The notes: generated by a model not told the origin, from the sequence alone. 64,000 nt of DNA from Candidatus Kuenenia stuttgartensis (GCA_943332855.1 CALQRA010000002.1:19154-83153), one strand, 5' to 3'; numbered from the stretch's first letter, positions 1,580 to 37,915 are shown. Made by a program: numbers and translations.

Positions 1580-2188
1580 TCAGCGCGACTCTCCGGGTGC
1601 GGTCGGGCGCGGGCTTGGCCCGTTGGTGCTGGCCCCCGGAAACACCGGTGCGTTGAATCCGGGGAGGGTCTGGCTTCGCCCGGGATCTGTCGTCGGTTGG
1701 GGCGGAGCCACCGGCGCCGTCGCGGGGCGCGACCCTGGTACGAGATTCGACCAGTTCGTGTTCGGGGGCGGAACCGGCTGCCCGGGGACGGCCGCTGGGG
1801 CGGGCGGCGGGGGGAATCCTGCTGGCGCCCGTGTCACCGGTGTGATGGCAGCGGAGGGTTTCAACTGCGGCGCCATCGGCCTCACGGTGATGCCCCCACC
1901 GGGGATGCCCGGCAGGCCGTCGCCGGCAGGCGCGACGCCTGGTTGGCTTGCCGCCGCCTTGCGGAGTTGCTGGGCTCTGGCCCGTGCCCGGAGCCGATCG
2001 CTCCGCAGCGGAATGCCGGGATAGGCCTGAACCGGCACCTCGAGGCTCGGCAACCCGATCCGGCTGCCGTCGCCAAAGTACGTGAACATCTCGATCGCCC
2101 GTGCCGGCAGCACCAGCGACAACGACAGCAGCATCGTTCCCGCCGACCAACGCGCGACACGCGACCACCGCCGCGGGGTGCAAGTCAT
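1580..2188 (-). CDS. Hypothetical secreted proline-rich protein
   Basis: Internal ATG at 2188 gives MTCTPRRWSRVARWSAGTMLLSLSLVLPARA, which is signal-like, followed by a Pro-rich low-complexity region. No family recognised. Confidence 0.4.
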   Translation of the reverse strand: MTCTPRRWSRVARWSAGTMLLSLSLVLPARAIEMFTYFGDGSRIGLPSLEVPVQAYPGIPLRSDRLRARARAQQLRKAAASQPGVAPAGDGLPGIPGGGITVRPMAPQLKPSAAITPVTRAPAGFPPPPAPAAVPGQPVPPPNTNWSNLVPGSRPATAPVAPPQPTTDPGRSQTLPGFNAPVFPGASTNGPSPRPTAPGESR

Positions 2189-2475
2189 GTTCGGCCTCCC
2201 TGCCGATGGCTCTCCGGCACGGCGGGCCGCCGTCCCGCCGACGGCCATCCCCCCCTACCACAGGGTTCTTCGGCTCGATCCGCGGCGTCACTCATCGATT
2301 CCTCAGCGGGTCGGTCGCCACCGACACGACCGTCAGGACCGTCACCACCCGATCTTCGTCGGCCGTGGCCCCTACCCGGAGGCGATGGCCGGGCTGGTAC
2401 GACCACCCCGGCGGATGGCATGTCCGCTTCCGCCCAGGCCGGGCGCGGCCGCCGAACCGGGGTAGGATTGTGACC

Positions 2476-3456
2476 ATGGCCTCCGATCCTCGCGCCTTCG
2501 ATCCCGCCACGGCCTGCTGGGCGATCGCCTCCCTGGCCGCACTGCTGACCGCGGGTGCAGCCATGCGCGCTGCCTTCGCCACGCGCGGCTCGACGGCCGT
2601 CCCGGCGACTCTGTGGGCCATCGTCGCCTGCCTCGCGCTGCTGCTCGACACGGCGGCCCGAGCCTCGGGAATCGTCTCCCAACCCGCCGCCGCCGCATCC
2701 CTGCGGATGGTGACCGCGAGCTTGTCGCTCTGTCCGGCGATGTCGCTCCTCGGTGCCAAACGCCCGCAGCATGGCGTCTGGCAGCTGATCGTCGCGGCGC
2801 TGGCGGTGATCCTCCTCCTGCCGGCGCTCTCCACGGTGCTCGTGCGACCAGACAGCGTTCCCGATGCCCATTTCCTCGGCCGCTGCTTCCTCGTCATCCT
2901 CGCGCTCGTCGGCTGGATGAACTTCGTCGCCACCCGTCACGGCGCCGCCGCGACGCTCGTCACCCTCGGGCAATTGGTGGTGGTCCGTGGATTCCTGCCG
3001 CTGGTCGACAGTGAATTGGCCTTCCCACCGACCGGTTCCAGCGGCGCCCCCGGGGCAGCATTCGTCGACGCGATCGGCGCCAGCCTAGCCGCCGCCGGCG
3101 GGCTCCTGGCCCTGGCGCGCAGCCGGCGGACGCCATCGTCGCCGGCCGCGGAGGGGACGTTCGCGGCAGCGCTCGGGCCGGCATTTTTTGCCTTCAGGGA
3201 GACGCTCGGCGCCGCATGGACACTGCGCGTCGCCGAGCGATTCGATGCCATCGCCATCAGCCGCGGCTGGCCCTGCCGCCTCCACTTCGACGGCTTCCGT
3301 CCCCCCGACGCTCCGTTCGACGGACCGTGGCAGCGAGACGCCCGCCGGGCCCTGGCGGCCCTGTTCCGTCGGTTCGTCTCGCCAAACTGGCTCGGTCGGC
3401 ACGGTTGGCCGGCGGCGGGCGGCGGGCGATTGGCTCCGGAGGAACGGGGGGGCTAG
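2476..3456 (+). CDS. Hypothetical multi-pass membrane protein
   Basis: ATG at 2476 (MASDPRAF...). Several hydrophobic segments of about 20 aa are present (WAIASLAALLTAGAA, LWAIVACLALLL, LIVAALAVILLLPAL, CFLVILALVGWMNF). No family recognised. Confidence 0.5.
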   Translation: MASDPRAFDPATACWAIASLAALLTAGAAMRAAFATRGSTAVPATLWAIVACLALLLDTAARASGIVSQPAAAASLRMVTASLSLCPAMSLLGAKRPQHGVWQLIVAALAVILLLPALSTVLVRPDSVPDAHFLGRCFLVILALVGWMNFVATRHGAAATLVTLGQLVVVRGFLPLVDSELAFPPTGSSGAPGAAFVDAIGASLAAAGGLLALARSRRTPSSPAAEGTFAAALGPAFFAFRETLGAAWTLRVAERFDAIAISRGWPCRLHFDGFRPPDAPFDGPWQRDARRALAALFRRFVSPNWLGRHGWPAAGGGRLAPEERGG

Positions 3457-3539
3457 ACTGGGCCGCTTCCGGGAAGACTGGCCGTTGGCCGGATCCACGG
3501 TCCTTCACCGGTTCGTCCAGCCCCATCCAGGAGCCAGTC

Positions 3540-3866
3540 ATGTCCGAGTCGTCCGCCCAGCGCCCCGCCCAGGAACCGATGCAGGTGCCCGTCGACGAAT
3601 CCCATATTCTCGCCACCTACGCGAACTTCTGCCGCGTGACCGGCACGCCGGAAGAGTTGATCGTCGACTTCGGTCTCAACAAGCAGGTGGCCGGGACGTC
3701 CCCCGAGACGATCCAGCTGACCCAGCGGATCATCGTCAATTTCTTCACCGCGAAGCGTCTGGCCTACGCCCTCCAGATGGCGGTGGCCCGTCACGAGCAA
3801 GCTTTCGGCGTCCTCGAGACCGATGTCCAGCGGCGAGTGATCCACCAGCAGGCTGCCAAGGCCTGA
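3540..3866 (+). CDS. Small conserved hypothetical protein (DUF3467-like)
   Basis: 108 aa from ATG 3540. The pattern ATYANFCRVTGTPEELIVDFG...RIIVNFFTAKRL resembles the DUF3467 family. Family assignment is from memory only. Confidence 0.55.
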   Translation: MSESSAQRPAQEPMQVPVDESHILATYANFCRVTGTPEELIVDFGLNKQVAGTSPETIQLTQRIIVNFFTAKRLAYALQMAVARHEQAFGVLETDVQRRVIHQQAAKA

Positions 3867-4130
3867 CCAAGCACGATCGGGGATGGCCAGTCGACTCGCG
3901 ACGCCGTCGCCAGCCCGGTCATTCAGCCAATCCACCCGGCGACCCCGGGGCGGGTTTGGCACGTATGACAACCACCACCCGGTGGGCATCGCCGGCGGAC
4001 CCTCCGCCGGCGATGTCCACCGCGACAGTCCATGGGAAAAGTCCTTCGTGGCCTTTTTCCTCGGACAGCCGCCGCATCCAGCGGCGGGTCACTGTATCCC
4101 CAGCCTGCCACCTTTCCGGTTCAGGGCCCA

Positions 4131-6224
4131 ATGAGCACCGTTGATCCCCGCGCCGTCGACGAGGCCCGCCAGCAGATCCGCGCGATCGTGGCGGAGATCG
4201 ACCAACTCGGCCGGTCTGATCTCGCCGAGGCCGATTTCTTCCGCGGACTCCTCGATCGGGTCCTCGAGGCGATGGGGGCCGTGGCCGGGTTGGTGTGGAT
4301 CGTCGGGGAAGGGGGGCGGTGCGAGCCGGTCTGCCACGCTGGGGTCCAAGCAACCGGGTTAACAGACTCCCCGGAGATGCAGGAGGCGCACGGCCGACTC
4401 ATTGAATCGCTCCTCGCCGGCACCGAGGGGATGCTGATCCCCGCCCGGGCCCAACTGGCCGGGCCCGACGGGAAACCAGTGGCGGGCAACCCGACCGATC
4501 TCCTGCTCGTCGCTGCCCCGATCGATCGCAACGGACAGCGGTCCGGGCTCCTCGAGGTTTTCCACCAGCCCCACCCCCCTGAAGTCGAGCAGGGATTCCT
4601 CACCTTCCTCGCCCAGGTGGCGACGGTGGCGGGCAGCTACCTCGCCCGCCGCCAGTCGAAGTCGATCGACGCCCAGCAGACCACGCTCACGCAGGTCGAC
4701 CGCTTCAGCCGGGCGGTCCACGAATCGCTCGACCCGATCGCGACGGCGTTCGTGCTTGCCAATGAGGCCCGGAGGATCATCGGCTGCGACCGCGTCAGTG
4801 TCCTCGTCCGCCGTCGCCGACGCCTCCGACTCGAGGCCGTCAGCGGACAGGAATCGGTGGAGCGGCGGGCCACGGCGGTCCAGGCGATCGAGGCCCTCGC
4901 CCGCGTCGTCTCCCGCGCCCGCGATCCGCTCTGGCATCCCGATCCCGGGCGCGAGCTCCCGCCGCAGATCGAGGAGGAGCTCGAGCATTTCATCGACGAA
5001 TCGCACGCCACGGCCCTGGCGGTGATCCCCCTGGAGCGGCCAAAGCCGACGCCGGTCGTCAAGCCCGGAGGGGTGGACGCGGTGGCGGTTGCCCGAGCCG
5101 AATCGAACTCCGACGGCAACGAGGATCGCGAACCGGTCGGCGTGCTCGTGGCCGAATGGTTCTCCTCGTCGTCGTTCGACGGCGGGAAGCGGGCCAGAGT
5201 CGACCTCGTCTCGGACCACGGACGGGTGGCGCTGGCCAACGCGCTGGATCACACCAGCCTGCCGCTCTACGGCATCCTCGATTTCCTCGGCAAGTCGCGC
5301 GTCCTGACGACCGCCCGCAACCTCCCGCGGACGCTGACGGCGGTGGTGGCGGCGCTGACGGGCTTGGCCGCCCTCGTGCTGATCCCCGCCGATTTGCGGC
5401 TCGAGGGGAAGGGAACGCTCGAGCCGGTCCATCGCCGCGACGTTTTCTCAGGCATCGACGGCGTGATCGAGTCGATTGCCGACGGCGTGGCCCACGGGAT
5501 CGACGTGAAGGAGGGGCAGTTGCTCGCGACGCTCCGCAACACCGATCTCGAGGTGGCCCTGACCGACGTCCTCGGCCGCAAGGCATCGAGCGAGGAGCAA
5601 CTTGTCTCCACGCAGCGGGCCCTCCTCGAAGACAACAAGATCTCCGCCGATGAACGGACACGAATGTCGGGCCGTGTCGCCCAGCTGCGGCGCGAGATCG
5701 AGAGCCTCGAGGAGCAACGGAAATTATTCCTCACCAAAAAGCAGTCCCTTGAGGTCCGCAGCCCGATCGACGGCGTGATCGTCACCTGGCAGGTCCGCGA
5801 CCGGCTCCTCCTCCGACCGGTCGAGAAGGGGCAGGTGTTGCTCGCGGTCGCCGACAAGACCGGCCCGTGGGAGCTCGAGGTCCACATGCCCGATGACCGC
5901 CTCGGCCACGTCAACCGGGCAGCGACCCAGGCGCGCCAGAAGGAGCGGGAACTGAAAGTCGATTACGTTCTCGCCACCGACCCCGGCACCCGGCACTACG
6001 GCTCCGTCAAGGAGATCCACGAACAGGCCGAGGTGCGCGGCGAGGCGGGCAACACCGTGATGGTGCGGATCACGATCGATCCCTCGAACCACGATCGCGA
6101 GGAGCTTGGCGCCGGAGCCACCGTGACGGCGCGGATCAACTGCGGCAAACGTTCGCTGGGGTATGTCTGGTTCCACGACGTGCTCGCCTTCATCCAATCC
6201 CAGATCCTGTTTCGTCTGTGGTGA
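4131..6224 (+). CDS. Tandem-GAF / TM / HlyD-type membrane fusion protein (MFP)
   Basis: ATG at 4131; an alternative in-frame ATG lies at 4032. Two cytoplasmic GAF-like regions are followed by one TM (LTAVVAALTGLAALVLI). After that comes a barrel-sandwich/coiled-coil MFP region (IDVKEGQLLATLRN..., long heptad region, SPIDGVIV). Confidence 0.75.
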   Translation: MSTVDPRAVDEARQQIRAIVAEIDQLGRSDLAEADFFRGLLDRVLEAMGAVAGLVWIVGEGGRCEPVCHAGVQATGLTDSPEMQEAHGRLIESLLAGTEGMLIPARAQLAGPDGKPVAGNPTDLLLVAAPIDRNGQRSGLLEVFHQPHPPEVEQGFLTFLAQVATVAGSYLARRQSKSIDAQQTTLTQVDRFSRAVHESLDPIATAFVLANEARRIIGCDRVSVLVRRRRRLRLEAVSGQESVERRATAVQAIEALARVVSRARDPLWHPDPGRELPPQIEEELEHFIDESHATALAVIPLERPKPTPVVKPGGVDAVAVARAESNSDGNEDREPVGVLVAEWFSSSSFDGGKRARVDLVSDHGRVALANALDHTSLPLYGILDFLGKSRVLTTARNLPRTLTAVVAALTGLAALVLIPADLRLEGKGTLEPVHRRDVFSGIDGVIESIADGVAHGIDVKEGQLLATLRNTDLEVALTDVLGRKASSEEQLVSTQRALLEDNKISADERTRMSGRVAQLRREIESLEEQRKLFLTKKQSLEVRSPIDGVIVTWQVRDRLLLRPVEKGQVLLAVADKTGPWELEVHMPDDRLGHVNRAATQARQKERELKVDYVLATDPGTRHYGSVKEIHEQAEVRGEAGNTVMVRITIDPSNHDREELGAGATVTARINCGKRSLGYVWFHDVLAFIQSQILFRLW

Positions 6225-7237
6225 CATCACCGCACTGCATCGCCCCCCGCGCCCCCCGTGGGGCCGGCCGACTCCCGGAGGTCATCGTGCGTTTTTCCCC
6301 CGTCATCGCCCTGTTCACCGTCAGCGTCGCGGCCCTCGCGCTCCCCGCGGCCCCCCCCGCGGCCCCGTCAGCCTCCGCGCGGAGTGCTGCCGAGCCGGTC
6401 CTCGAGCACTGCCTCGTGTCGGTTCTGAAAGAGGCGAAGGTGCCGGCCAGGGAAGGGGGGGTGCTCATCGATCTCCTCGTCCGCGAAGGGGATTCGATCA
6501 AGGCCGGCGACGTGATCGCCAAGATCGACGACAGCCAGCCGCAGTTCGAGCGCCGCAAGGCCAAGGCCGAACACGACCAGGCGGTGGCGAAGGCCAGCAG
6601 CGACGTCGATGTCCGCTTCGCAGTGGCCTCGGAGCTCGTGGCAGCCGCCGAGTTCGAGAAGGCGCAGCTGGCTGCCGATAAGCTCCAGGGGAGTGTCACC
6701 CTCGTCGAGCTCGACCGCCTCGAACTCAACGAGCGGAAGGCTGAACTGCAGATCGAACAGGCCGAGCTCGAGCGGAGGATGACCGCACTGGCCTCCGATT
6801 CAAAGGCGGTGGAGGTCGAGGCTGCCGAGAAGGCCATCGAGCGGCGCACGATCACCGCTCCCCTCGAGGGCACTGTCGTCCAGGTCTTTCCGCACCAGGG
6901 GGAATGGATGCAACCGGGCGATCCGCTGGCCCGCGTCGTCCAGACCGACCGGCTCCGCGTCGAGGGCTACGTCGACTCCTCCCGCTGGAATCCGGAAACC
7001 GTCAGGGACCGGCCGGTGACCGTCGACGTCGTGTTCGCCGACAACCGGACGGAGTCGTTCCCGGGGCGGATCGTGTTCACCAGCCCGCTGGTCGATTCCG
7101 GAGGCGACTACCGCGTTTGGGCGGAGGTGGAGAATCGGCGCATCGCCGATTCGACCCAATGGCTCCTTCGGGCCGGCCAATCGGCCACGATGACGATCCA
7201 TTCCAGCCAGGCGCCCCTGGCCCCCGTCACGCGGTAG
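6218..7237 (+). CDS. HlyD-family membrane fusion protein (periplasmic adaptor)
   Basis: Signal/anchor FSPVIALFTVSVAALALPAAP, a biotinyl-lipoyl-like hairpin (VREGDSIKAGDVIAKID ... ITAPLEGTVVQV) and a central coiled coil. The track start at 6218 is a GTG overlapping the previous stop, so the true start may be the GTG near 6287. Confidence 0.75.
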   Translation: MVTSPHCIAPRAPRGAGRLPEVIVRFSPVIALFTVSVAALALPAAPPAAPSASARSAAEPVLEHCLVSVLKEAKVPAREGGVLIDLLVREGDSIKAGDVIAKIDDSQPQFERRKAKAEHDQAVAKASSDVDVRFAVASELVAAAEFEKAQLAADKLQGSVTLVELDRLELNERKAELQIEQAELERRMTALASDSKAVEVEAAEKAIERRTITAPLEGTVVQVFPHQGEWMQPGDPLARVVQTDRLRVEGYVDSSRWNPETVRDRPVTVDVVFADNRTESFPGRIVFTSPLVDSGGDYRVWAEVENRRIADSTQWLLRAGQSATMTIHSSQAPLAPVTR

Positions 7238-7261
7238 CCTTTCGCGGAAAGCCCCCACCCG

Positions 7262-9496
7262 ATGTCGACCGCCGCGGACGCCTTCCGATCGAGCACCACG
7301 CGCCCCGTCGGCCTGCGCCGCCGCGGTGACCTCGTGGCGACGAGGCAGTCCTACCAGGGGCAGATTTGGTGGGTCGTGAAGGATCCGATTTCGCTGGGCT
7401 ATTTTCGCTTCCGCCCCGAGGAATATGCCCTCCTCGACATGCTCGATGGCCAGGCGAGCCTGGAGCGGCTCAAGGAGCAATTCGAAGCCCGTTTCCCCCC
7501 CCGCCGAATCACCGTCGAGGAATTGGCCCGCTTCGTGGCCACGCTCCACCGCAGCGGCCTCGTCATTGGCGACCGTCCGGGGCAGGGGCCGCAGCTCTTC
7601 GAGCGCCGCCGTCAGCGGATCTGGCGGCAGTGGATGGCATGGCTTGCCAACATCATGTCGATGCGCTTCCGGGGGATCGACCCCGACCGGATCCTCCACC
7701 GGATTGACCCTGCGTTCGGCTGGCTGTTCTCCGTCCCCGCGGCGGCCGGTATGGCCGTGCTCGTCTCCAGTGCTCTCCTGCTGGTGCTGGTCAACTTCGA
7801 TGTCTTCAGGTCGAAACTGCCGGAGTTCCAGCAGTTTTTCGCCTCCGGCAACTGGATCTGGCTGGCCTTGGCCCTCGGGTTCACGAAGGTTCTCCACGAG
7901 TTTGGGCACGGTCTGTCGTGCAAGCATTTCGGTGGCGAATGCCACGAGATGGGGGTGATGCTCCTTGTCTTCACTCCGTGTCTCTACTGCGATGTGTCCG
8001 ACAGCTGGATGCTGCCGAGCAAGTGGCAACGGGCGGCGATCGGCGCGGCGGGGATGTACATCGAGCTGATTCTCGCCTCGATCGCCACCTTCCTGTGGTG
8101 GAACTCCCATCCGGGGGTCTTCAACCAGCTGTGCCTCGATGTGATGTTCGTGTCGAGCGTGTCGACGCTGATGTTCAATGCCAATCCGCTGATGCGCTAC
8201 GACGGCTATTACATCCTCTCCGACCTCCTCGAGATCCCCAACCTCCGCCAGAAGGCGACGACAATCCTCGGCAGGCTCGCGTCGCTCTGGTGCCTCGGTA
8301 TCGAGCAGCCGGAGGACCCGTTCCTCCCCACGCGCAACCGTGGCCTGTTCGCCCTGTTCGCCATCGCCTCGAGCCTCTACGGCTGGATGGTGACAGCGTC
8401 GATTTTCCTTTTTGTGTGGAGTGTCTTCAAACCCTACCGCCTCGAGGTGCTGGGGCAGATGCTCGCGATGGGCGCCCTATGGGGGCTTGTTGTCAGGCCG
8501 ATCCAAAACATGATCAAGTTCCTCAATGTTCCCGGGAGGCGCGAGGAAGTGAAGCTCCGTAATCTCGTCACGACGGGAGCCGTCGTCGCCGCCCTCGCCG
8601 CCGCCGTGGCACTCATTCCCCTTCCCCAACGGGTGTGGTGTGCCGCCGAACTGCGTCCCCGGGCGGAGGAGACGGTCTACGTGTCGGTCGCCGGAGTCCT
8701 CGAGAGCATCGCGGTGAAGCCCGGAGCGCTGGTCGAGGCGGGCGCCGAGATCGCTCGGCTCTCCAGCATCGATCTCGATCTGGCGATCGCCGATCTCGAC
8801 GGCAAGGCCACCCAGGCCCGGGCGCGATTGGCGAGCCTCGAGCGCGAGCGGTTTACCGATCCCGCCGCCAGCCTCGAGATCGGCACCGTGGAGGAGTCGC
8901 TCAAGAGCGTTGAAGAGCAACTCAAGCGGAAGCGGAAAGACCGGGCGGACCTCGTGCTCAGCGCCCCGCGGAGCGGCGTGGTGCTCCCATCCCCGGCCTT
9001 GAAGCCCCCCCCGGACGGAACCGGCCGGCTCCCCGGGTGGAGCGGCCATGTCCTCGAGGAGCGGAACCTCGGCGCCACGCTCGCCGAGGGGACGGTTCTC
9101 TGTCTTGTCGGTGATCCGAACGCGTTCGAGGCGGTGATGATCGTCGACCAGTCGGAGATGGAGTTCGTGTCGCGGGGGCAGCGGGTCGACCTGAAAATCA
9201 ACGCGCTGCCCTGGCAGACGTTCCGCGGAACGATCGACGAGATCGCCGAGACGAATCTGGAGGGAGGATCGGAGCGGTTGAGCGTGAAGTCCGGCGGTCA
9301 GGTTCCCACGCGGACCGACGAATCGGGGAAGGAGATGCCGATCTCCACTAGCTACGAGGCCCTCATGGCGGTCGATGATCCCGACGGTGCCTTCACCGCT
9401 GGGATGCGCGGCTCGGCGCGGATTCGGGTCGGGCAGCGGACGGTCGGCAGTTGGTTGCTGCGTCTCCTCTGGCAGACGTTTAACTTCCGGATGTGA
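7262..9496 (+). CDS. Fusion protein: PqqD-like N-domain + peptidase M50 (site-2-protease type, HEFGH) + HlyD-type MFP C-domain
   Basis: HEFGH zinc motif embedded in multiple TMs (VLHEFGHGLSCKHFGGECHEMGVMLLVFTPCLYCDVSD). A later TM (VTTGAVVAALAAAVALI) is followed by an MFP-like region (VKPGALVEAGAEIARL, coiled coil, SAPRSGVV). Confidence 0.8.
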   Translation: MSTAADAFRSSTTRPVGLRRRGDLVATRQSYQGQIWWVVKDPISLGYFRFRPEEYALLDMLDGQASLERLKEQFEARFPPRRITVEELARFVATLHRSGLVIGDRPGQGPQLFERRRQRIWRQWMAWLANIMSMRFRGIDPDRILHRIDPAFGWLFSVPAAAGMAVLVSSALLLVLVNFDVFRSKLPEFQQFFASGNWIWLALALGFTKVLHEFGHGLSCKHFGGECHEMGVMLLVFTPCLYCDVSDSWMLPSKWQRAAIGAAGMYIELILASIATFLWWNSHPGVFNQLCLDVMFVSSVSTLMFNANPLMRYDGYYILSDLLEIPNLRQKATTILGRLASLWCLGIEQPEDPFLPTRNRGLFALFAIASSLYGWMVTASIFLFVWSVFKPYRLEVLGQMLAMGALWGLVVRPIQNMIKFLNVPGRREEVKLRNLVTTGAVVAALAAAVALIPLPQRVWCAAELRPRAEETVYVSVAGVLESIAVKPGALVEAGAEIARLSSIDLDLAIADLDGKATQARARLASLERERFTDPAASLEIGTVEESLKSVEEQLKRKRKDRADLVLSAPRSGVVLPSPALKPPPDGTGRLPGWSGHVLEERNLGATLAEGTVLCLVGDPNAFEAVMIVDQSEMEFVSRGQRVDLKINALPWQTFRGTIDEIAETNLEGGSERLSVKSGGQVPTRTDESGKEMPISTSYEALMAVDDPDGAFTAGMRGSARIRVGQRTVGSWLLRLLWQTFNFRM

Positions 9497-9528
9497 TCTC
9501 CGCCCGACCACCAACTCCCCGTCCACCC

Positions 9529-10419
9529 ATGCCGCATCTCGAGCGGATCACGCTCCATCCGGTGAAGAGCCTCGACGGCCTCAATGTCGAGCGGGCCTGC
9601 GTGCTCCCCTGCGGGGCGCTGGCCAACGACCGCCGCTGGCGCCTGGTCGACTTCGATGGGCATGTCGTCAACGCCAAGCGGACGCCGCTCATCCAGCGCA
9701 TCCGGGCGACCTTCGATCTCGACGGCGCCCCGACGGTGGGGCTCTCCACCCCCCCCGACTGGCGCGGGGAGACAGCGCCTCCCCCCCCCTTTCCAGACAG
9801 CTTTCCCCTCGTGCCCGGGCCGGAGGGGCCATGTCGCTGGCTCTCCGCCGCACTCGGGGTGGAGGTCCTCCTCCAGGAGCGTGCCGAAGGGGGATTCCCC
9901 GACGACCGCGACGCGATGGGGCCGACGCTCGTCTCCACCGCATCGCTGAGCGAAGTGGCCCGCTGGTTCTCCCTGCCGCTCGGGGAAGTCCGGCGCCGAT
10001 TCCGGATCAATCTCGAGGTGGGCGACTGCCAGGCCTTCTGGGAAGACGCGTTGGCCAGCCCCGCGCCCCCCGGGAAAAGCTCCGCTGCGCCCGCCGGACC
10101 GGTCCTGCACGACCCCCTCCCAGCCGATTCCTGCGCCCCGCCGCCGCTGTCGTTTCGTGTCGGCGAGGCCGGCTTCACGGCTGTCAACGTCTGTCGGCGC
10201 TGCCCCGTGCCGGCCCGCGACTCGACCACTGGCCGCATCACGGAACACTTCCGGGAGGTGTTCGAGGCCTGGCGGCGGCGGCGGCTCCCCCGTGACGTCG
10301 ATGCGGCGGCCTGGGGGGGGCTCTACCGGCTGGCGATCAACACCGTCGGCGATGGGCAGGGCGGAAACGTGCACGTGGGCGACCGGATCGAACCGGTCGC
10401 CCACGCAGGTGATTCATGA
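9529..10419 (+). CDS. MOSC domain protein (MOSC_N beta-barrel + MOSC)
   Basis: ATG at 9529. MPHLERITLHPVKSLDGL...NDRRWRLVD is MOSC_N-like. The C-terminal part has the conserved Cys context VCRRCPVPARD. It starts 33 bp after the M50-MFP stop. Confidence 0.7.
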   Translation: MPHLERITLHPVKSLDGLNVERACVLPCGALANDRRWRLVDFDGHVVNAKRTPLIQRIRATFDLDGAPTVGLSTPPDWRGETAPPPPFPDSFPLVPGPEGPCRWLSAALGVEVLLQERAEGGFPDDRDAMGPTLVSTASLSEVARWFSLPLGEVRRRFRINLEVGDCQAFWEDALASPAPPGKSSAAPAGPVLHDPLPADSCAPPPLSFRVGEAGFTAVNVCRRCPVPARDSTTGRITEHFREVFEAWRRRRLPRDVDAAAWGGLYRLAINTVGDGQGGNVHVGDRIEPVAHAGDS

Positions 10420-10438
10420 CCTCGCCGACCGGAGCCGA

Positions 10439-12841
10439 TCAGTTGGGCGGCAGCGGAACGGAGAGGGCCGGATCGTAGAACGGCGGCGGCGGGATGATGA
10501 TGTTCCCGTCGCCATCGACGGCATCCGCGGGGAGATCCTGGACCGACGTGCTGAAGTTGAGCCCCTGGAGATTGGCCTCGTTGGCGGCCCGGATGTTGAG
10601 GATCCCCTGGCCGGGGATGACGACGACATTGGTGGCGTCGAACGTCCAGCCGACCGAGTCGAGGAGGATGTTGCCGTTGGTTGTGGCCACGGTGCCCGAA
10701 ATGATCGTTGCGGCCCCAGTGACCCGGTTGCTTACCACGCTGGCGTTCAGCACGGCTCCCGGCGCGTCGGCCACCGACAGGATGATCCCGTTGCCCCCGT
10801 TCGTCACGATATGGTTGTCGTTGATCGTGACGTTCATGACGCCGTTCTCGGTGGCCTGGGCCCGGACGCCGACCGGCACCAGCGAGAAGGTCGACCCGAC
10901 GACCTGGACGGTCGACTGGTTGCCGAACACGCCCGGGGCGATCCCGGCCGTGGCATCGACACCGGCGGTCCCGACACGCTCGAACCTGGTGTTCTCGACG
11001 TACGCCTGGCCGTTGGTGACCTGGACACCCGCGGCGGTCGTCCCCTCGATCGCCGAGTTCGAGATTCGGACCCGCCCCTCGTTGTAGATATCCTTGACGA
11101 CCACGGCCGATCCACCGGTGTTGGCAAAGATCGAGCTGTCGATGTTGACCTTCGGATCGCCCGCCCCGGCACTGCCACCGTCGACGATGAACCCGTCGGC
11201 CGTGAGGCCGGTCAGGACCATGTTCGAGAAATTGAGCGTCGAGTTCGAGCCGCTGGCATCGCGGATCACGACACCGGTCTGCTGGGGACCGCTGCCGACG
11301 ATCCGGACGTCGTTGACAATCACAAAGCTGGCCGGATTGGTGATGTCCCTGTCAGTGATGCCGACCCGCGAACCGGTGATCTGGAGATGGTCGACGACAG
11401 ATCCGTTGCGGAGCGTGATCGCCGGCGCGGCCCCCGAGGCGATCACCGGATAGTCGGTGCTCTTCACACCGCTCCACACCGGCACGAGGCCCATGTTCGC
11501 CGTCGGCAGTCGCATCGCCGACCCCTGGCCGACGAGAAACTGGTGATCGGCCGAGAAGTGGAACCCGCCCTCATAGGGCTGATTCGAACTGATCCCCTGA
11601 TGGACGAGGATGATGTCAAACTCGTTCGTCGCCAGGAGTTGCGCGTCGGCGAGCGTGGCCACCGGCGATTCCGCGGTGCCCAGCCCCGTGGCCGCCATGG
11701 CGGAGACAGACTGCGGCACGGCGGCCGTGCCCGCGGCCATGGCGCTGTCGACGTGGATCACGTTCCAGGGGGTGTTGGTGTAGGGACTCATCGCCTGCAC
11801 CGGCGCTTGGTGGGCACGGACGATATGCTCGTTGCGCATCATCGGTTGCTCGAGCTGATCGGAGACGTTCCGCCGCCGCGAACCCCCCATCCGGTAGGTG
11901 ATCCTGGCAAAGCCGGTCCAGTCGAAGTAGCTGTCGTTGTTCGCCTGGAGCGAGAAGTCCCAGTTGTTGAGAAACGTCATGTCGAGGCGGGTGTACACAC
12001 CGCCGAAGTACGGGACGACGGCGGCGCCGCTGGGGACGTTGTAGCGGGTGTTGCCGAAGGAGTAGCCTCCGACGCTCACCATGCCGGCCCAGTCGGAGAG
12101 GCCGGGAACGTAGGCACCGACTTCAAGATCGGCCCCGGCGAGACCGGCATTGATGCCGAGGACACCGAGGAGCGAATTGCCGACGTATGGCCCCATCGTC
12201 GACGCGGTGGTGCCCACCGGGATGTAGCCGTTGCTCCGCAGATTGCCATAGTCGGTGAGCCATTCGCCCGACACGCCGACCTGGTTGTAAGACATCCCTC
12301 CAGCGAAGACATAACTCCCGCTGGCGTCGTTGATCCAGGTGTTGCCGTACTGGTTTTGGTCGCCGTCGTAGTCCCAGTAGACGCCGATGCCGCCGATCGT
12401 ACCGCCGAAGAACTGCTTGCGGACGATACCGACATTGGAGAAGAAGCCACCGTAGTTGGAGAGATGACTGCGGAGATCAGCCGACCAGAACCCGCCCAGG
12501 TCGTCCTCGGCGTAGGGGATGAACCCGCCGAGCGTCATGTAGCTACCGCGGTAGCCGAGACCGCGGTCGGCGGCATTCAGCCCGTAGTACAGCCACCCAG
12601 GCCCGGTGTTGTTGAGGTTTGCGAACCCGGCAGCCGCCCGGTTCACGACGCCGCCGACCGGCGCCATGCCCATCTGCCCCGTCTGAGCGAGGGCGGTGCC
12701 GGACTGCCCCGCCGCCGTGGTGGCGACCAGCATGCAGGCGGCCATCGCTCGGACGCGACGGCGCCAGATGGCCATTCGGCCACGGCTGGCCTTCGGGCGG
12801 AAGCGACCGCTGCCGGCGGGACGATGCGCTGTGTTCTTCAT
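10439..12841 (-). CDS. Inverse-autotransporter-like outer-membrane protein with right-handed beta-helix passenger
   Basis: ATG at 12841 (MKNTAHRP...) with a signal-like AMAACMLVATTAAG. The N-terminal ~330 aa are G/Y/N-rich alternating beta-barrel sequence, including VGVSGEWLTDYGNLRSNGYIPVG (intimin/invasin beta-domain-like). The C-terminal ~450 aa are imperfect ~22-25 aa beta-helix coils (VVNDVRIVGSG..., NSAIEGTTAAGVQV..., INDNHIVTNGGNGI...). Confidence 0.65.
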   Translation of the reverse strand: MKNTAHRPAGSGRFRPKASRGRMAIWRRRVRAMAACMLVATTAAGQSGTALAQTGQMGMAPVGGVVNRAAAGFANLNNTGPGWLYYGLNAADRGLGYRGSYMTLGGFIPYAEDDLGGFWSADLRSHLSNYGGFFSNVGIVRKQFFGGTIGGIGVYWDYDGDQNQYGNTWINDASGSYVFAGGMSYNQVGVSGEWLTDYGNLRSNGYIPVGTTASTMGPYVGNSLLGVLGINAGLAGADLEVGAYVPGLSDWAGMVSVGGYSFGNTRYNVPSGAAVVPYFGGVYTRLDMTFLNNWDFSLQANNDSYFDWTGFARITYRMGGSRRRNVSDQLEQPMMRNEHIVRAHQAPVQAMSPYTNTPWNVIHVDSAMAAGTAAVPQSVSAMAATGLGTAESPVATLADAQLLATNEFDIILVHQGISSNQPYEGGFHFSADHQFLVGQGSAMRLPTANMGLVPVWSGVKSTDYPVIASGAAPAITLRNGSVVDHLQITGSRVGITDRDITNPASFVIVNDVRIVGSGPQQTGVVIRDASGSNSTLNFSNMVLTGLTADGFIVDGGSAGAGDPKVNIDSSIFANTGGSAVVVKDIYNEGRVRISNSAIEGTTAAGVQVTNGQAYVENTRFERVGTAGVDATAGIAPGVFGNQSTVQVVGSTFSLVPVGVRAQATENGVMNVTINDNHIVTNGGNGIILSVADAPGAVLNASVVSNRVTGAATIISGTVATTNGNILLDSVGWTFDATNVVVIPGQGILNIRAANEANLQGLNFSTSVQDLPADAVDGDGNIIIPPPPFYDPALSVPLPPN

Positions 12842-22197: not shown

Positions 22198-22554
22198 GCG
22201 CTCATCGCTTTGCGCAAAACGTCTATCGCCGGCTCCATCACCCACCCGCTGAGGGAGGGCGTCGCGATCCCGAAAATCGCTTTTTTACAGCGGTTTTCTG
22301 CGGTTTTTTGAATTGGCTGAAAAGCCATCGTCAAACCCGGCCGCGATCCGCTTGCAACTTGGACTGATTCCGTCATGACTCACTCTGAGGGGCGGAGTGA
22401 GGAATCTGCCGACGCTGTTAACCGCCCAGACTCGATCGAGATAAGTCGGCTTCCTTCCGCCGCCGAGCGAATGCTCCACGATTCTGGGATCGCTGCTGAC
22501 TTTGTGGTTTCACTGGGCCTTGTTACTCGAAGCATCTCCACGAGTTATTCCAAA

Positions 22555-25488
22555 ATGCAGTCCAGAACTTTCCGCTTCATCGGCTTCGTCGCGTCAATCG
22601 CTTCGATCGGAGCACAAACCGCGGGTGTTGCCGCGGAGGTCGGCTGGTCGCCTCCCGCCCCGACGGCCACGGCATCGACCCTGTGGCTGAATGACGCCGC
22701 TGGATCCTCAACGCTGGGGCAGGGGATGCTCCAGCTCAATGGGCCTGCGGAATCCTTGGTGCTCACCGATCGCTCGACCGCCACCATCACGGGCCTTCTG
22801 ACCCTCACCGGGACCGTGCCGACCTTCCGCACGAGCGTCGCCACCGGTTCGCAGGATTCAATCGTCGGCATGAACATCGGCTCCGGGGATCCGCAGACAA
22901 GTAATGCCGGCAGAACCGTCGTCAATTCGCTTGTCGCCGATGCTGCTACCGACGTTTCCCAAATCACGAAGACCAGTCGGGGAACACTCCTGCTCGATGA
23001 CGCGAGCACCTACTCCGGCGCCACGACCCTGTTCGACGGATCGCTCGCCGCAGGCAACACGAAGTCGTTCGCCAGCGGGGCCTCCGGCCTCAATGGTGGT
23101 GCGATCTCTTCTCCGGATTTCCCCGCGGCCCCGTCTCGGACGTTTGCCAACAGCGCCTCTGTTGGAAGCACCGTGACGTTCGGAGACACGCTTTCCCCTG
23201 TCAATACCGGCTTCAGTAGCGGGATCGACCTCCAGGGCGCCGTGCGAACGTTCACGACCAACGCCAACGTCACCTTTGACGGCGTCGTCGCCAATGGTGC
23301 CGTCAGCAAGTCAGGAGCTGCCGCTCTGACGCTCACCGGGATCAACTCCTACGCCGGTGGCACCACGCTCACCGAGGGAACGCTGTTTGCCGCGAACAAT
23401 TCGGCCCTCGGCACCGGTCCGCTGGCCCTGGGGAGCACGTCCTCCCCGACGATTTCCTCGGATGCCAGCGGAGCCTCTGCCGCCCGCACATTTGCCAACG
23501 ACGTTTCGGTCAACGGCAACGTCACCTTCGGCGATGGCAGCAACAACGGCGCGATGCTCTTCGCGAGCTCCGCCAATCTGGGCAATGCCGGGGAAACGCG
23601 GACCTTCACGGTCAACGCCAAGACGACGTTCAGCGGAGAAGTCAGTGGTGGGGCAGGGCTGACGAAGACTGGCAGCGGTGTCCTCACGCTCTCCGGCAGT
23701 AATTCCTACTCCGGAGGAACGACGTTCGCCAGCGGGATGCTGAGCGCCGGCAGCAACGGCTCGTTTGGAACGGGGGCGATGACGTTCGCCGGGGGGGCCG
23801 TCGGATCGGCCGACAGCACCCCGCATACCTTCGCCAACTCCATGGTGTTCCTTGGCGATCTGACGATTGGAAACTACATCGACTCCATGGGTGCCCTGAC
23901 CTTCACGAGTCAGGTCGATCTTGGAAACACCGACCGTCGGCTGACGACGAAGGCGAACGCGACATTCACAGGGGCGATCGCCAACGGATCGATCACGAAG
24001 GACGGCCTCGGGGCCCTCGTGCTCTCCGGATCAAACTCGTACGGCGGCGGCACCACCCTCTTCGAGGGCACCTTGCTCGCAGGCAGCGATCAGGCCTTCG
24101 GGTCCGGCATGATGAATCTCAACGGCGGGATCATCGGTTCGGCCAGCGGCCAGCGATCGTTCTCCAACGCCGTGTCGATGGTCGGTGGACCGGTGCAATT
24201 CGGTGATTCCGAGCACCTCGCTTCCCTGCTCTTCACGGGCAGTACGACCCTCGCGGCTGGCCAGAAGACTTTCAACACCGTGGCCGACACCACGTTCACC
24301 GGCATTCTCGCTGGTAGCGGCGCGTCGCTCATCAAGACCGGTGACGGGATCCTCACGCTCACCAACGCCAACACCTACGACGGCGGCACGCAAATCCAGA
24401 ATGGAGTCATCCGTATCGCCAACGACGCGGCCCTCGGCGGCGGTGCGATCACGTTTGGCGGCGGTGCCCTCGCCTCGACCACCAGCGATAACCGGGGGAT
24501 TTACAACGACGTCAACTTCAACGGGGGCGCGTCGATCGGCGATGGCTCATCGAACGGAGCGTTCGTCTTCCACGGTGCCAACAATACTCTCGCCAGCGGC
24601 ACCCAGACGATCACCACGAATGTCGCCACGACGTTTGTCAACGGGATCACCGGGGCCGGCGGCCTGACGAAGTCGGGGGCTCATGCCCTCACCCTAAAGG
24701 GACTCAACACGTACACCGGCGACACGGTTATCGAGAGCGGCAAACTCGTCCTCGATGGATCGATCCTCGGGTCGAAGGAGATCCGCCTCGCCGCAGGTGC
24801 CGTTCTCGGAGGCCATGGCCGGTTCGACGGGACGATCTCCGGGGCCGGCAGCGTCGACCCGGGGAATAGCCCGGGCATTCTCGTCACCGGCACCATCGAT
24901 CCCTCGGGTGGGCTCGACTTCAACTTCGAGTTCACGCAGACGGGTGCTGCGACTTGGACGAACAGTTCGGCGAGCGGTAACGACGTCCTTGTCGCCAACG
25001 TTCCTACCCCGGCCTTCACGGCGAACCTCACCAACGCCAACACCGTCAACCTTTACTTCTCGACGGCTATGACAGCGACATTCACGGCAAGTGCTTGGAC
25101 ATCGATGCAGGGCGGTTTCTTCACCATCGATAACACCAACAGCCTCGCCTCTGCCATCGCCGGCGCGGACTTCCAGTTCTACTTCCAGGGTACCGGTGCC
25201 GGCCAAATCACCTACAACACTGTCACTTACGTCCCCCAGGCTACAGCCCGCAGCAGTGGCCTCCTTCCGGCCAGCGGGCAAGGGTTCGTCATCCGGCAAG
25301 CAACCGTGGCATCCGCCAACTTTCAGTCTCCTGTTGGCACCGTCATCAACGGTCTCTCGATGGAAGTCGTCTCGGTCCCTGAGCCTTCCACCTGGGTGAT
25401 GGGGCTCATGGCCGCCGGCGTGGCCCTCGCCCGTCGTCGCCGTCTGGCTGGTTTGCTCACCCGGTTGCGGAGATCCGTTCCGCTTTGA
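22555..25488 (+). CDS. Large surface protein: autotransporter-associated beta-strand (PATR) repeats with C-terminal PEP-CTERM sorting signal
   Basis: Start at ATG 22555 gives the signal MQSRTFRFIGFVASIASIGAQTAGVAA. There are more than 10 repeats of the type G.LTLSG.NSY.GGTT...G.L. The C-terminus is VPEPSTWVMGLMAAGVALARRRR (PEP motif + TM + Arg cluster). Confidence 0.8.
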   Translation: MQSRTFRFIGFVASIASIGAQTAGVAAEVGWSPPAPTATASTLWLNDAAGSSTLGQGMLQLNGPAESLVLTDRSTATITGLLTLTGTVPTFRTSVATGSQDSIVGMNIGSGDPQTSNAGRTVVNSLVADAATDVSQITKTSRGTLLLDDASTYSGATTLFDGSLAAGNTKSFASGASGLNGGAISSPDFPAAPSRTFANSASVGSTVTFGDTLSPVNTGFSSGIDLQGAVRTFTTNANVTFDGVVANGAVSKSGAAALTLTGINSYAGGTTLTEGTLFAANNSALGTGPLALGSTSSPTISSDASGASAARTFANDVSVNGNVTFGDGSNNGAMLFASSANLGNAGETRTFTVNAKTTFSGEVSGGAGLTKTGSGVLTLSGSNSYSGGTTFASGMLSAGSNGSFGTGAMTFAGGAVGSADSTPHTFANSMVFLGDLTIGNYIDSMGALTFTSQVDLGNTDRRLTTKANATFTGAIANGSITKDGLGALVLSGSNSYGGGTTLFEGTLLAGSDQAFGSGMMNLNGGIIGSASGQRSFSNAVSMVGGPVQFGDSEHLASLLFTGSTTLAAGQKTFNTVADTTFTGILAGSGASLIKTGDGILTLTNANTYDGGTQIQNGVIRIANDAALGGGAITFGGGALASTTSDNRGIYNDVNFNGGASIGDGSSNGAFVFHGANNTLASGTQTITTNVATTFVNGITGAGGLTKSGAHALTLKGLNTYTGDTVIESGKLVLDGSILGSKEIRLAAGAVLGGHGRFDGTISGAGSVDPGNSPGILVTGTIDPSGGLDFNFEFTQTGAATWTNSSASGNDVLVANVPTPAFTANLTNANTVNLYFSTAMTATFTASAWTSMQGGFFTIDNTNSLASAIAGADFQFYFQGTGAGQITYNTVTYVPQATARSSGLLPASGQGFVIRQATVASANFQSPVGTVINGLSMEVVSVPEPSTWVMGLMAAGVALARRRRLAGLLTRLRRSVPL

Positions 25489-34043: not shown

Positions 34044-34247
34044 CCCCCCGTCGGGCCGTCGGCCTATCGGGGAGGGGCTGCAGCGGCTGCGTAGGATGGG
34101 CAATGGCCGTTGACCCTGCGGCCCCGCACGGTGGGGCTCTGCACAGCCCCTCGCAGTCACCGCCGGACGACTGCCGTCGAACTGCCGCCGGCGCCGAAGA
34201 GTTTTCCGATGGGGCCAGGCACACCCGCCGTTCCTCCGGCAAACCCG

Positions 34248-36614: not shown

Positions 36615-37915
36615 AAGGACCCCCTCCGATGGCCCCCTCCTTCCCGACGAGCCTCTCCAGACGCCGCCTCCTCCGGGCCTGCGGCGTCGGCATCGGCCTG
36701 CCGTGGCTCGAGGCGCTGGCGCCGCGCCGACCGGCAACGGCCGCCGAGCCCCGGTCCCCGCTGCGGTTGGTGGCGATCGAGACGACGATGGGACTGCTCC
36801 CCCAATACTTCTTTCCCGAGGGGACCGGCCACGACTACGTCCCCTCTCCCTACCTCGTCCCCCTCGAGCCGTTTCGCGACCGGCTCACCGTCTGCTCCGG
36901 GCTCTCCCATCCCGACGTCGACGGCGGCCATGCGGCCGACATCGCCTTCCTGACCGGGGCTCCCCACCCGGCCAGCGGTAGCTTCCGCAACACCGTGTCG
37001 CTCGACCAATTCGCCGCCGAACGGCTCGGCGCAGAGACGAGGCTCCCGAGCCTGTCGCTCACCGTCGCCGCCCAGGGAACGACGAGCTTGTCGTTCACGC
37101 GTGACGGCGTGCTCCTCCCCGGCGAGCGGAGCCCGGCCCGGCTCTACCGGCAGATGTTCCTCCAGGGAACGCCGCAGGAGACCGGCGAAAAGATCGAGGC
37201 CCTCCGCACCGGCCGCAGTGTTCTCGACTTCGTCGCCACCGGTGCCCGCCGCCTCGACAAGAACCTCCCGGCCGCCGATCGGGAACGGCTCGACCAATAC
37301 TTCACGAGTGTCCGCGACCTCGAGGACCGGCTCCAGCGGGCCGAGGTGTGGGAGAAGCGCCGCCGCCCTCGGCCGAAGTTGCCCCCCCCGGTGGAGAACC
37401 CCGAGCAGGACCTGTTCACGCTCCTGCGGCTGATGGGGCAGATGATCCGCCTGGCCCTGGAGAGCGACACGACGCGGCTGGTGACGCTGCTGGTCAATCC
37501 GGCCCAGTGGGTACCGCGGGCCCCAGGGGTCGTCCACGAAACCCACGCCCTGACGCACCACGGCAACCGGCCGGAGATGATCGCCGAGCTCAAGCGGGTC
37601 GAGGAGATGCAATTCGTGATCCTCGCCGAGCTCCTCGCCGGGCTCGACGGTGTCCGTGAGGGGAGCCACTCGCTCCTCGACGGAACGATGGTCCTCCACG
37701 GATCGTGCCTGGGGAACGCCAACGCCCACTCCAACAGCCGGCTCCCGGTGCTCGTCGCCGGGGGGGGATTCCACCACGCCGGACACCTCGCCTTCACCGA
37801 TCGTGACGCGCCGCCGCTGGCGAATCTCTACGTCAGTCTGCTCCAGCGGCTCGGCGTCGAAACCGACCGTTTCGCCAGCTCCACCGGCACCCTCCGCGGC
37901 CTCGAGGCCGCCTGA
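36611..37915 (+). CDS. DUF1552-family protein (Tat-signal)
   Basis: LSRRRLLRACGVGIGLPWLEA is twin-arginine-like. Later motifs include HPDVDGGH and HHAGH. A 4-bp overlap with the upstream DUF1592 gene matches the canonical pair. Confidence 0.8.
   Translation: MKGPPPMAPSFPTSLSRRRLLRACGVGIGLPWLEALAPRRPATAAEPRSPLRLVAIETTMGLLPQYFFPEGTGHDYVPSPYLVPLEPFRDRLTVCSGLSHPDVDGGHAADIAFLTGAPHPASGSFRNTVSLDQFAAERLGAETRLPSLSLTVAAQGTTSLSFTRDGVLLPGERSPARLYRQMFLQGTPQETGEKIEALRTGRSVLDFVATGARRLDKNLPAADRERLDQYFTSVRDLEDRLQRAEVWEKRRRPRPKLPPPVENPEQDLFTLLRLMGQMIRLALESDTTRLVTLLVNPAQWVPRAPGVVHETHALTHHGNRPEMIAELKRVEEMQFVILAELLAGLDGVREGSHSLLDGTMVLHGSCLGNANAHSNSRLPVLVAGGGFHHAGHLAFTDRDAPPLANLYVSLLQRLGVETDRFASSTGTLRGLEAA

Follow-up and report, generated by a model that had tools for sequence, protein, structure and literature searches.

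What do three periplasmic adaptor proteins do in a neighborhood that offers them no pump? This question is raised by a 64,000-nucleotide (nt) stretch of Candidatus Kuenenia stuttgartensis DNA (GCA_943332855.1 CALQRA010000002.1:19154-83153), referred to here, at its full length, as the window. Three co-directional genes in the window, termed the triad (Table 1), encode proteins that each end in a HlyD-type adaptor domain. The first product (the GAF-adaptor) carries predicted cytoplasmic GAF domains in front of it, the second (the short adaptor) a signal anchor, and the third (the M50-adaptor) the core of an M50 intramembrane metalloprotease. We propose that the triad, together with an upstream gene for a DUF3467 protein, encodes the core, in inner membrane and periplasm, of an uncharacterized TolC-type pathway, similar to type I secretion, for proteins bearing an LEPR signal. 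This pathway would operate without an ATP-binding cassette (ABC), resistance-nodulation-division (RND), or major facilitator superfamily (MFS) transporter. Judging from sequence comparisons, we give this reading a probability of about 60%.

A conserved triad without a pump

The triad is a conserved, self-contained, pump-less unit. In the window, there are no ABC, RND, or MFS genes within approximately 28 kb of it; its neighbors encode a tetratricopeptide repeat protein, a membrane protein, a MOSC protein, a beta-helix protein, a methyl-accepting chemotaxis protein, a haloacid dehalogenase-type hydrolase, and a pyridoxal phosphate enzyme. The nearest pump genes, which code for a MacB-type permease, an ABC ATPase, and TolC, form a conventional set of their own, separate from the triad. 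Related neighborhoods were compared by tblastn with the window proteins and by clustering all neighboring open reading frames (ORFs). The planctomycete sample consists of the best 80 of at least 571 loci in a genome scan, all 80 of them from Planctomycetota, and partner counts refer to the 55 informative loci, those in which the sequence ahead of the M50 gene extends for 3.5 kb or more. Both partners sit beside the M50 gene in 44 of these 55 loci, mostly in the window order of GAF-adaptor, short adaptor, and M50-adaptor, and one partner is present in another 5. GAF-adaptor homologs occur in 46 of the 55, and the short adaptor is likewise conserved beside the M50 gene. Within 10 kb of the M50 gene, an ABC ATPase is encoded in 3 of the 80 loci and a MacB/FtsX-type permease in none; every other neighbor cluster is limited to about eight loci or fewer.

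The M50-adaptor family itself numbers 4,462 representatives at E ≤ 1e-30 among 1.84 billion cluster representatives. The best 150 of those listed are mostly full length (approximately 740 amino acids [aa]), with identities down to 36%, and close relatives are 75 to 94% identical across many planctomycete metagenome-assembled genomes (MAGs).

All three triad proteins match Pfam HlyD_D23 as well as HlyD_3, the latter with E values of 7e-8, 5e-14, and 4e-8 (33.6, 53.3, and 34.3 bits, versus a cut-off of 22.2) in gene order. Homolog alignments place the start of the GAF-adaptor at the ATG at 4131, within a longest ORF that begins at 4032. The GTG start of the short adaptor overlaps the upstream TGA stop by 7 nt, and the M50-adaptor begins 24 nt behind the short adaptor, spacing that suggests an operon. 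The initial annotation of this locus had described three packed, co-directional genes with an overlap at 6218-6224 and a gap at 7238-7261, whose products share adaptor domains but differ in their front halves, and it had noted the missing pump. ORF, Pfam, and hydropathy analyses upheld this description, the pair of GAF domains by way of family-level matches. The neighborhood counts and the homolog alignment also agree with what the annotation implied for relatives elsewhere: the triad is kept as a unit, it does not stand beside a conventional pump, and its catalytic M50 residues are conserved.

That annotation further allowed that either of two flanking genes, one for a DUF3467 protein upstream and one for a MOSC protein starting 33 nt past the M50-adaptor stop, could be part of the module, and the two have fared differently. 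DUF3467 is linked to the M50 gene in 22 of the 80 planctomycete loci, on the upstream side in 6, as in the close relatives of the window, and directly downstream in 16 more distant ones; it also adjoins the triad in Methylosinus and Thalassospira. Because this linkage persists despite the rearranged position, we regard DUF3467 as belonging to the module. The protein is very highly conserved, and we infer that it is a candidate cargo chaperone or adaptor. Kinship with the chaperone SecB was considered and rejected, as an hhalign comparison with E. coli SecB was negative (probability, 0.1%). MOSC, by contrast, was dismissed as a component because it is linked in 6 of the 80 loci, all of them from the closest relatives.

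The sampled loci also vary. In several planctomycete genomes, the M50-adaptor locus is present as two paralogs (L018/L036, L038/L053, L034/L041, and L012/L049), and locus L033 (7882-9907) has two tandem short adaptors. M50-adaptor genes without a detectable partner were those of L028, L039, L045, L053, L055, and L062; genes for glycosyltransferase-like and small beta-barrel-like proteins flank those of L055 and L062, which may represent a different variant.

Proteobacterial relatives and their giant proteins

A second sample links the triad to very large proteins and to TolC. A tblastn search of annotated plasmids and chromids returned 84 records, mostly from Proteobacteria, of which ten regions were examined. 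An adaptor gene adjoins the M50-adaptor gene in all ten, a giant ORF lies directly upstream in nine, TolC is adjacent in seven, and an ABC, RND, or MFS pump is present in none. By BLASTP, the window M50-adaptor and short adaptor match their proteobacterial counterparts, while the GAF-adaptor matches weakly, via its adaptor domain; its counterparts there are 450 to 630 aa long.

Gene order in these regions follows a few patterns. For instance, Methylosinus encodes a giant protein (26.5 kb), DUF3467, a GAF-adaptor (629 aa), an M50-adaptor labeled "PqqD family" (715 aa), a "prepilin peptidase" (638 aa), a short adaptor, and TolC. Thalassospira has an LEPR-XLL protein (12 kb), DUF3467, an adaptor, the M50-adaptor, another adaptor, and TolC, and Pseudosulfitobacter has an LEPR-XLL protein (38.7 kb), an adaptor, the M50-adaptor, SapC, a "prepilin peptidase," and an adaptor. 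A different order is found in Azospirillum brasilense Sp7, where a giant DUF4347 protein is followed by TolC, a short adaptor, an adaptor of approximately 450 aa, and the M50-adaptor. This order is repeated in Burkholderia anthina, on E. coli plasmid pABWA45_1 (L085; the giant protein is annotated as Ig-like and matches Pfam DUF4347), in Cupriavidus metallidurans CH34 (upstream ORF of at least 2,741 aa by tblastn), and, behind a smaller repeat protein, on Magnetospirillum pMSR-1. Finally, Rhizobium johnstonii and Rhodobacteraceae M382 have an adaptor, the M50-adaptor, and SecA, in M382 with an unannotated ORF of at least 2,646 aa upstream.

Two further observations concern these regions. Of 5,426 complete E. 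coli genomes, 24 have the proteobacterial version with a giant DUF4347 protein, TolC, two adaptors, and an M50-adaptor at 99% or higher identity, in most cases on a plasmid. Also, the SapC-family gene inside the Pseudosulfitobacter module (L081:11230-12051) may be an additional accessory component; SapC also flanks the LEPRxLL giants of Chlorobium chlorochromatii (2026 preprint).

An N-terminal tag on the candidate cargo

The giant proteins share an unusual start. All six of the proteobacterial N-termini that were read combine a basic stretch with an [LI]E[PS]R motif (LEPRFLL, LEPRVLL, LEPRFMF, LESRQLF, LEPRVVY, and IEPRILL), and two of the four that were scanned match the NCBIfam model LEPR-8K ("LEPR-XLL domain") with E values of about 1e-7. 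In Planctomycetota, large ORFs with an Arg/Lys-rich start followed by LE[SDEPTK]Rx[LVM]L were found at 11 of the 80 loci, and in L002, L020, and L064 they lie on the same strand, approximately 1 kb downstream of the module. The products include subtilases and RTX-like repeat proteins. Among six such ORFs that were extracted, the net charge before the motif is +4 to +12, and five lack a Sec-type hydrophobic core. For the candidate cargo overall, the N-terminal net charge is +6 to +12 in eight of ten proteins, and of the nine with a scorable N-terminus, eight are without a Sec-type hydrophobic core.

A non-hydrophobic planctomycete signal with the consensus "RRLxxExLExRxLLA" was described in 2004, and T. 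immobilis has 52 genes of this kind (PMC8567305). The 20-residue Pfam model Planc_extracel gave sub-threshold matches to both planctomycete candidates and to the Pseudosulfitobacter LEPR N-terminus. Because one model reaches both groups, the LEPR-XLL and Planc_extracel motifs look like the same signal.

Domain architecture of the adaptors

In the first protein, a pair of GAF domains is supported at the family level. The window GAF-adaptor scores 20.6 bits against the Pfam GAF model, versus a cut-off of 22.4. Nevertheless, GAF is matched by 24 of 28 family members (best E value, 1.4e-14) and by the Methylosinus ortholog (5e-13), and the first 165 or so residues give GAF-type matches (GAF, GAF_2, or GAF_3; best E value, 1.5e-6) in 7 of 10 homologs, spanning the profile wholly or for the most part. 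These matches compensate for the weak score of the window protein itself, and a prediction of two GAF domains is therefore reasonable. A hydropathy scan located the transmembrane (TM) helix of this protein, the signal anchor of the short adaptor (residues 22 to 40), and the multihelix core of the M50-adaptor. The short adaptor also scores 100.1 bits against NCBIfam RND_mfp, over the cut-off of 94.9. None of the three proteins has a dedicated NCBIfam model, and sequence searches of the PDB gave no useful match for the GAF-adaptor or DUF3467.

The M50-adaptor barely exceeds the Pfam cut-off for Peptidase_M50 (27.3 versus 27.2 bits), a model that is matched by all 24 family members. In an alignment of 24 representatives with identities down to 35%, residues H212, E213, H216, N306, N308, P309, D314, and G315, which make up the two M50 motifs, are invariant, and HEFGH is also invariant in a set of 66 sequences. 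An AlphaFold2 (AF2) model was built on 66 sequences (mean predicted local distance difference test [pLDDT] score, 78.7). The model places both motifs in a helical membrane core, of which the last TM helix spans residues 432 to 450. Ahead of this core, residues 18 to 103, approximately, form a beta-sheet and then three helices, the layout of the PqqD-type peptide-recognition element, that is, the recognition element (RRE) of ribosomally synthesized and post-translationally modified peptides (RiPPs). Weak matches to Pfam PqqD are found in 5 of the 24 family members, and PGAP labels several proteobacterial homologs "PqqD family."

Behind the membrane core, the model has a two-helix hairpin of approximately 28 residues per arm (503-529/534-562), beta-barrel parts, and a C-terminal amphipathic helix. 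The top 50 PDB structures listed by Foldseek are all periplasmic adaptors (MacA, MexA, AcrA, ZneB, and EmrA; E values down to 2e-14), whereas a sequence search of the PDB with this protein gave marginal matches, the best to the EmrA adaptor (E = 0.008). As modeled, then, the C-terminal third of the M50-adaptor is predicted to fold as a true TolC-docking adaptor. The front part resembles proteases of RiPP pathways: residues 33 to 418 align to nearly the whole daptide MpaP model (daptide_HExxH, NF041824; 177.8 bits versus a cut-off of 300), with the RRE-like region against its N-terminus, and residues 165 to 330 align to the YydH/LiaK proteases (NF058609; 53.4 bits versus 225). In JGI naming, the protein is a "putative peptide zinc metalloprotease."

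A conserved amphipathic helix ends both the GAF-adaptor (6150-6221, …LGYVWFHDVLAFIQSQILFRLW) and the M50-adaptor (9440-9493, …TVGSWLLRLLWQTFNFRM; residues 728 to 740 in the AF2 model). It is absent from the short adaptor and is unusual among adaptors.

A short SecA paralog beside related triads

A short SecA paralog is encoded beside the triad at 4 alphaproteobacterial and 10 planctomycete loci. The planctomycete protein, of 670 to 830 aa, lies just upstream of the triad in eight loci and appears as fragments at two contig edges. Bremerella locus L020, for example, runs in the order SecA-like protein, GAF-adaptor, adaptor, M50-adaptor, DUF3467, and LESRQLL protein. Identity between the phyla is 42 to 47%. 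In Methylosinus and Pseudosulfitobacter, the genes labeled "prepilin peptidase" (L082:11192-13108 and L081:12044-14068; RefSeq GYH34_RS19190 and DSM107133_RS19240) are misnamed members of this group, as evidenced by their matches to Pfam SecA_DEAD (E = 1e-103), SecA_PP_bind, and P-loop_SecA, without a match to the scaffold or wing domains, and by 50% identity to the M382 "SecA." This naming of short SecA paralogs looks like a systematic misannotation.

Because such a paralog adjoins many related triads, the motor or translocon may lie elsewhere than in the M50 core. SecA-like domains have also been reported within giant proteins (bioRxiv 10.1101/2023.11.21.568195), an association that the recurrent short SecA paralog echoes.

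A proposed pathway and its alternatives

How might these parts work together? The cargo would have a strongly basic N-terminus that is not hydrophobic and, behind it, the motif [LI]E[PSDT]Rx[LVM][LF], that is, LEPR-XLL or the similar Planc_extracel signal. The cytoplasmic RRE/PqqD-like domain of the M50-adaptor, possibly with DUF3467, would bind this leader, and the M50 site would then cut it off at the membrane. The three different adaptor domains would form a hetero-oligomer, a periplasmic duct docked to an outer-membrane channel, while the cytoplasmic GAF domains would regulate the system. Energy could come from the dedicated short SecA paralog where one is encoded and from another source elsewhere. 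For the planctomycete studied here, genes for the cargo, for the outer-membrane partner, and for any SecA paralog would lie outside the window, as would suit a housekeeping pathway with numerous, scattered substrates.

In broad terms, this agrees with the initial annotation, which suggested that proteolysis is coupled to export without a pump: in Proteobacteria, the triad stands between a giant secreted-type protein and TolC. It also saw in the GAF domains a possible ligand gate. However, its picture of the M50 domain as the inner-membrane core now competes with a SecA-driven route, and the TolC at 41482, which it offered as a partner, belongs to the neighboring MacB/ABC set. The cargo class, which we infer to be proteins tagged with LEPR-XLL or Planc_extracel, did not appear in that annotation. 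Its authors knew of no characterized system of such composition, and none was found in the literature searched. Searches that combined HlyD and M50 in Planctomycetes, or used DUF3467, DUF4347, LEPR-XLL, and Planc_extracel, returned no description of an M50-adaptor secretion module.

Several observations weigh against the proposed pathway. The window contains no SecA-like gene, no ORF with an LExRxLL N-terminus in strict or relaxed motif scans, and no TolC tied to the module, and TolC is absent within 10 kb of the M50 gene in all 80 planctomycete loci. No partner was detectable upstream of the M50-adaptor in 6 of the 55 informative loci. The proteobacterial M50 proteins are 27 to 29% identical to the window protein by BLASTP, and the AF2 model of DUF3467 is unreliable (pLDDT of 58, from a shallow alignment). 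Moreover, motif ORFs are not enriched near planctomycete triads: 11 in 1.19 Mb is about the chance density expected from 52 per genome, for which we take the genome size to be approximately 6.7 Mb. Because of this chance density, the link to cargo rests on the Proteobacteria.

Three other explanations compete with an export pathway for tagged proteins. The M50 family is best known for signaling proteolysis, and GAF domains are typical sensor modules, so the triad could serve regulated intramembrane proteolysis or envelope surveillance with no export at all. The adaptor-like domains would sense the envelope and the GAF domains a cytoplasmic ligand, and the M50 site would cleave a membrane-tethered regulator, as do RseP and SpoIVFB. 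We consider this unlikely, given that no sigma factor, anti-sigma factor, or other regulator recurs beside the triad, that TolC and the giant proteins of Proteobacteria would have no obvious place, and that the N-terminal domain looks to be of the RRE type, a binder of peptide leaders, and not a PDZ-type sensor. The same domain, which resembles PqqD, and the JGI name invite comparison with a RiPP or bacteriocin-like module, in which the RRE-M50 protein would remove the leader of a short peptide, as YydH and daptide MpaP do, and the adaptors would carry the peptide out. The matches of 178 bits (daptide_HExxH) and 53 bits (YydH/LiaK) within residues 33 to 418 are in keeping with this idea, yet both scores fall far under their cut-offs, and no precursor peptide, radical-SAM enzyme, or tailoring enzyme recurs in the 80 planctomycete and 10 proteobacterial neighborhoods, where the recurrent neighbors are giant LEPR proteins. 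The identities among planctomycete MAGs are also unlike those of accessory RiPP clusters. A RiPP module therefore seems less likely again.

The least likely of these explanations, in our judgment, is that the triad consists of orphan adaptors for a conventional pump encoded elsewhere, such as the MacB-type ABC transporter and TolC at 37.9 to 43.3 kb in the same window, with the M50 fusion acting as an accessory or quality-control protease. The adaptor fold is indeed nearest to MacA, MexA, and AcrA. Nevertheless, pump genes are all but missing from the planctomycete loci (an ABC ATPase in 3 of 80 and a MacB/FtsX permease in 0 of 80) and do not occur in any of the ten proteobacterial regions, not even those that have TolC and cargo directly adjoining the triad, and two of the three adaptors bear elaborate cytoplasmic or membrane domains of their own in the place of a pump.

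Comparison with known systems

Among known machines, the peptidase-containing ABC transporters (PCATs) of type I secretion, such as colicin V CvaA/CvaB/TolC, offer a close analogy to the pathway proposed here. An N-terminal leader is recognized and cut by an inner-membrane protease, as it would be in the module, and export proceeds in one step through a periplasmic adaptor and TolC; genes for cargo, adaptor, and TolC are clustered in the proteobacterial relatives of the module too. However, the module has neither an ABC transporter nor an ATPase domain, its protease belongs to the polytopic M50 metalloproteases and carries an RRE-like domain, instead of being a C39 cysteine protease, and its three adaptors all differ, two of them being fused to other domains. 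Its cargo would be giant LEPR-motif proteins instead of double-glycine peptides, and the candidate motif is N-terminal, whereas a defining criterion of type I secretion is a C-terminal, uncleaved cargo signal. With tripartite pumps (MacAB-TolC, AcrAB-TolC, and TriABC-OpmH), the module shares the lipoyl/beta-barrel/alpha-hairpin adaptor fold, as modeled for the M50-adaptor, and the TriA and TriB proteins of TriABC-OpmH are a precedent for more than one adaptor species. Unlike these pumps, the module has no ABC, RND, or MFS inner-membrane component in about 90 loci, and its adaptors are fused to GAF domains or an M50 core.

The protease has its own relatives. The RiPP HExxH proteases (Bacillus subtilis YydH, daptide MpaP, and LiaK) align with its RRE-like domain and M50 core over approximately 390 residues, and the presumed task, leader removal at the membrane, is shared. 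The M50-adaptor nevertheless scores below their equivalog cut-offs, and those proteases end without an adaptor domain, cooperate with ABC exporters, and act on small peptides with tailoring enzymes encoded nearby. Site-2 proteases (RseP, SpoIVFB, and Eep) likewise bear HExxH and NxxPxxxxDG within a polytopic membrane core; in contrast, the M50-adaptor is without PDZ or CBS domains, is fused to a periplasmic adaptor, and includes an RRE-like domain, and its genomic context is secretion instead of sigma factor signaling.

Finally, accessory SecA2 systems export giant serine-rich adhesins in Gram-positive bacteria. The related loci, though not the window, resemble them in having a dedicated SecA paralog beside export genes as well as very large surface proteins with atypical signals. 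Yet the module lacks SecY2 and Asp proteins and operates in a diderm setting with adaptors and TolC, and its linked SecA paralog is short, without a scaffold or wing match, and absent from the window.

Genes around the triad

Table 1. Coordinates of the triad, its domains, and other features of the window
Feature	Position	Strand	Evidence or remark
Polytopic membrane protein, no named family	2509-3456	+	Start uncertain; lineage-specific neighbor
DUF3467 small soluble protein, conserved module accessory	3540-3866	+	Pfam DUF3467, E = 3e-20
GAF-GAF-TM-periplasmic adaptor protein (GAF-adaptor), 697 aa	4131-6224	+	HlyD_3, HlyD_D23
Predicted N-terminal GAF-like domain, residues ~36-166, cytoplasmic	4236-4628	+	Own match, E = 0.12
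Predicted second GAF domain, residues 202-301, cytoplasmic	4734-5033	+	Pfam GAF, E = 7e-4
Single TM helix of GAF-adaptor, residues 402-420	5334-5390	+	Hydropathy scan
Short periplasmic adaptor, 339 aa, signal anchor and long coiled-coil hairpin	6218-7237	+	HlyD_3, HlyD_D23, RND_mfp
RRE (PqqD)-like domain, M50 intramembrane metalloprotease core, and periplasmic adaptor (M50-adaptor), 744 aa	7262-9496	+	
PqqD/RRE-like peptide-recognition domain, residues ~14-103, cytoplasmic	7301-7570	+	AF2 layout
HEFGH zinc-binding/catalytic motif, H212 E213 H216 (residues 212-216)	7895-7909	+	
NANPLMRYDG, second M50 motif, residues 306-315 (N306 N308 P309 D314 G315)	8177-8206	+	
Periplasmic adaptor domain of M50-adaptor	8618-9493	+	AF2, Foldseek
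MOSC_N-domain protein, probably outside the system	9529-10419	+	Pfam MOSC_N, E = 3e-14
Beta-helix protein, 928 aa	10439-13225	-	Without LExRxLL motif
MacB-type FtsX permease	37937-40465	-	Nearest pump set to triad
ABC ATPase	40462-41259	-	Beside MacB-type permease
TolC	41482-43278	+	Beside MacB-type permease/ABC ATPase

The 315-aa membrane protein upstream of DUF3467 has no Pfam or NCBIfam match and is kept in that position in five close relatives only. Kinship with prepilin peptidases was considered and rejected, as BLASTP found no match and the proteobacterial "prepilin peptidase" is the SecA paralog. Homologs of the beta-helix protein (730 to 975 aa) occur in tandem beside the module in close relatives L002, L004, and L017. 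Farther along the window, 22375-25488 (+) encodes a 1,037-aa protein that has PATR repeats as well as a PEP-CTERM anchor; the surrounding region has a G+C content of 0.62 to 0.63, compared with 0.67 to 0.72 in its flanks. Also, 34110-37915 (+) holds a recurrent gene pair, for a planctomycete PSD/PSCyt protein (DUF1592/1588/1595/1587/1585) and, behind it, a DUF1552 (HXXSHH) protein. PADLOC models gave no defense system match, and a promoter and terminator scan of 2000-10800 returned nothing beyond shuffled expectation.

Implications

Is the module, then, a system in its own right? We see an even chance that the triad and DUF3467, joined in many genomes by the short SecA paralog and TolC, constitute a distinct, unnamed system that would be the missing exporter of the "RRLxxExLExRxLLA" proteins of planctomycetes and of the LEPR-XLL/DUF4347 giants of Proteobacteria and Chlorobia, working without a pump and with the leader cut by an intramembrane metalloprotease. 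If validated, it would probably rank as a secretion system in itself, beyond a variant of TolC/adaptor secretion. Genetics should be straightforward, because a near-identical proteobacterial version sits in 24 E. coli genomes, mostly on plasmids.

If the proposed pathway is correct, it would supply a candidate exporter for dozens of planctomycete surface proteins that carry a non-hydrophobic signal, and a candidate secretion route for the LEPR-XLL/DUF4347 giants, among which are the largest known bacterial proteins. Moreover, a TolC/adaptor machine with a protease, and not a pump, as its inner-membrane partner would be a first and would bear on how such ducts are energized.

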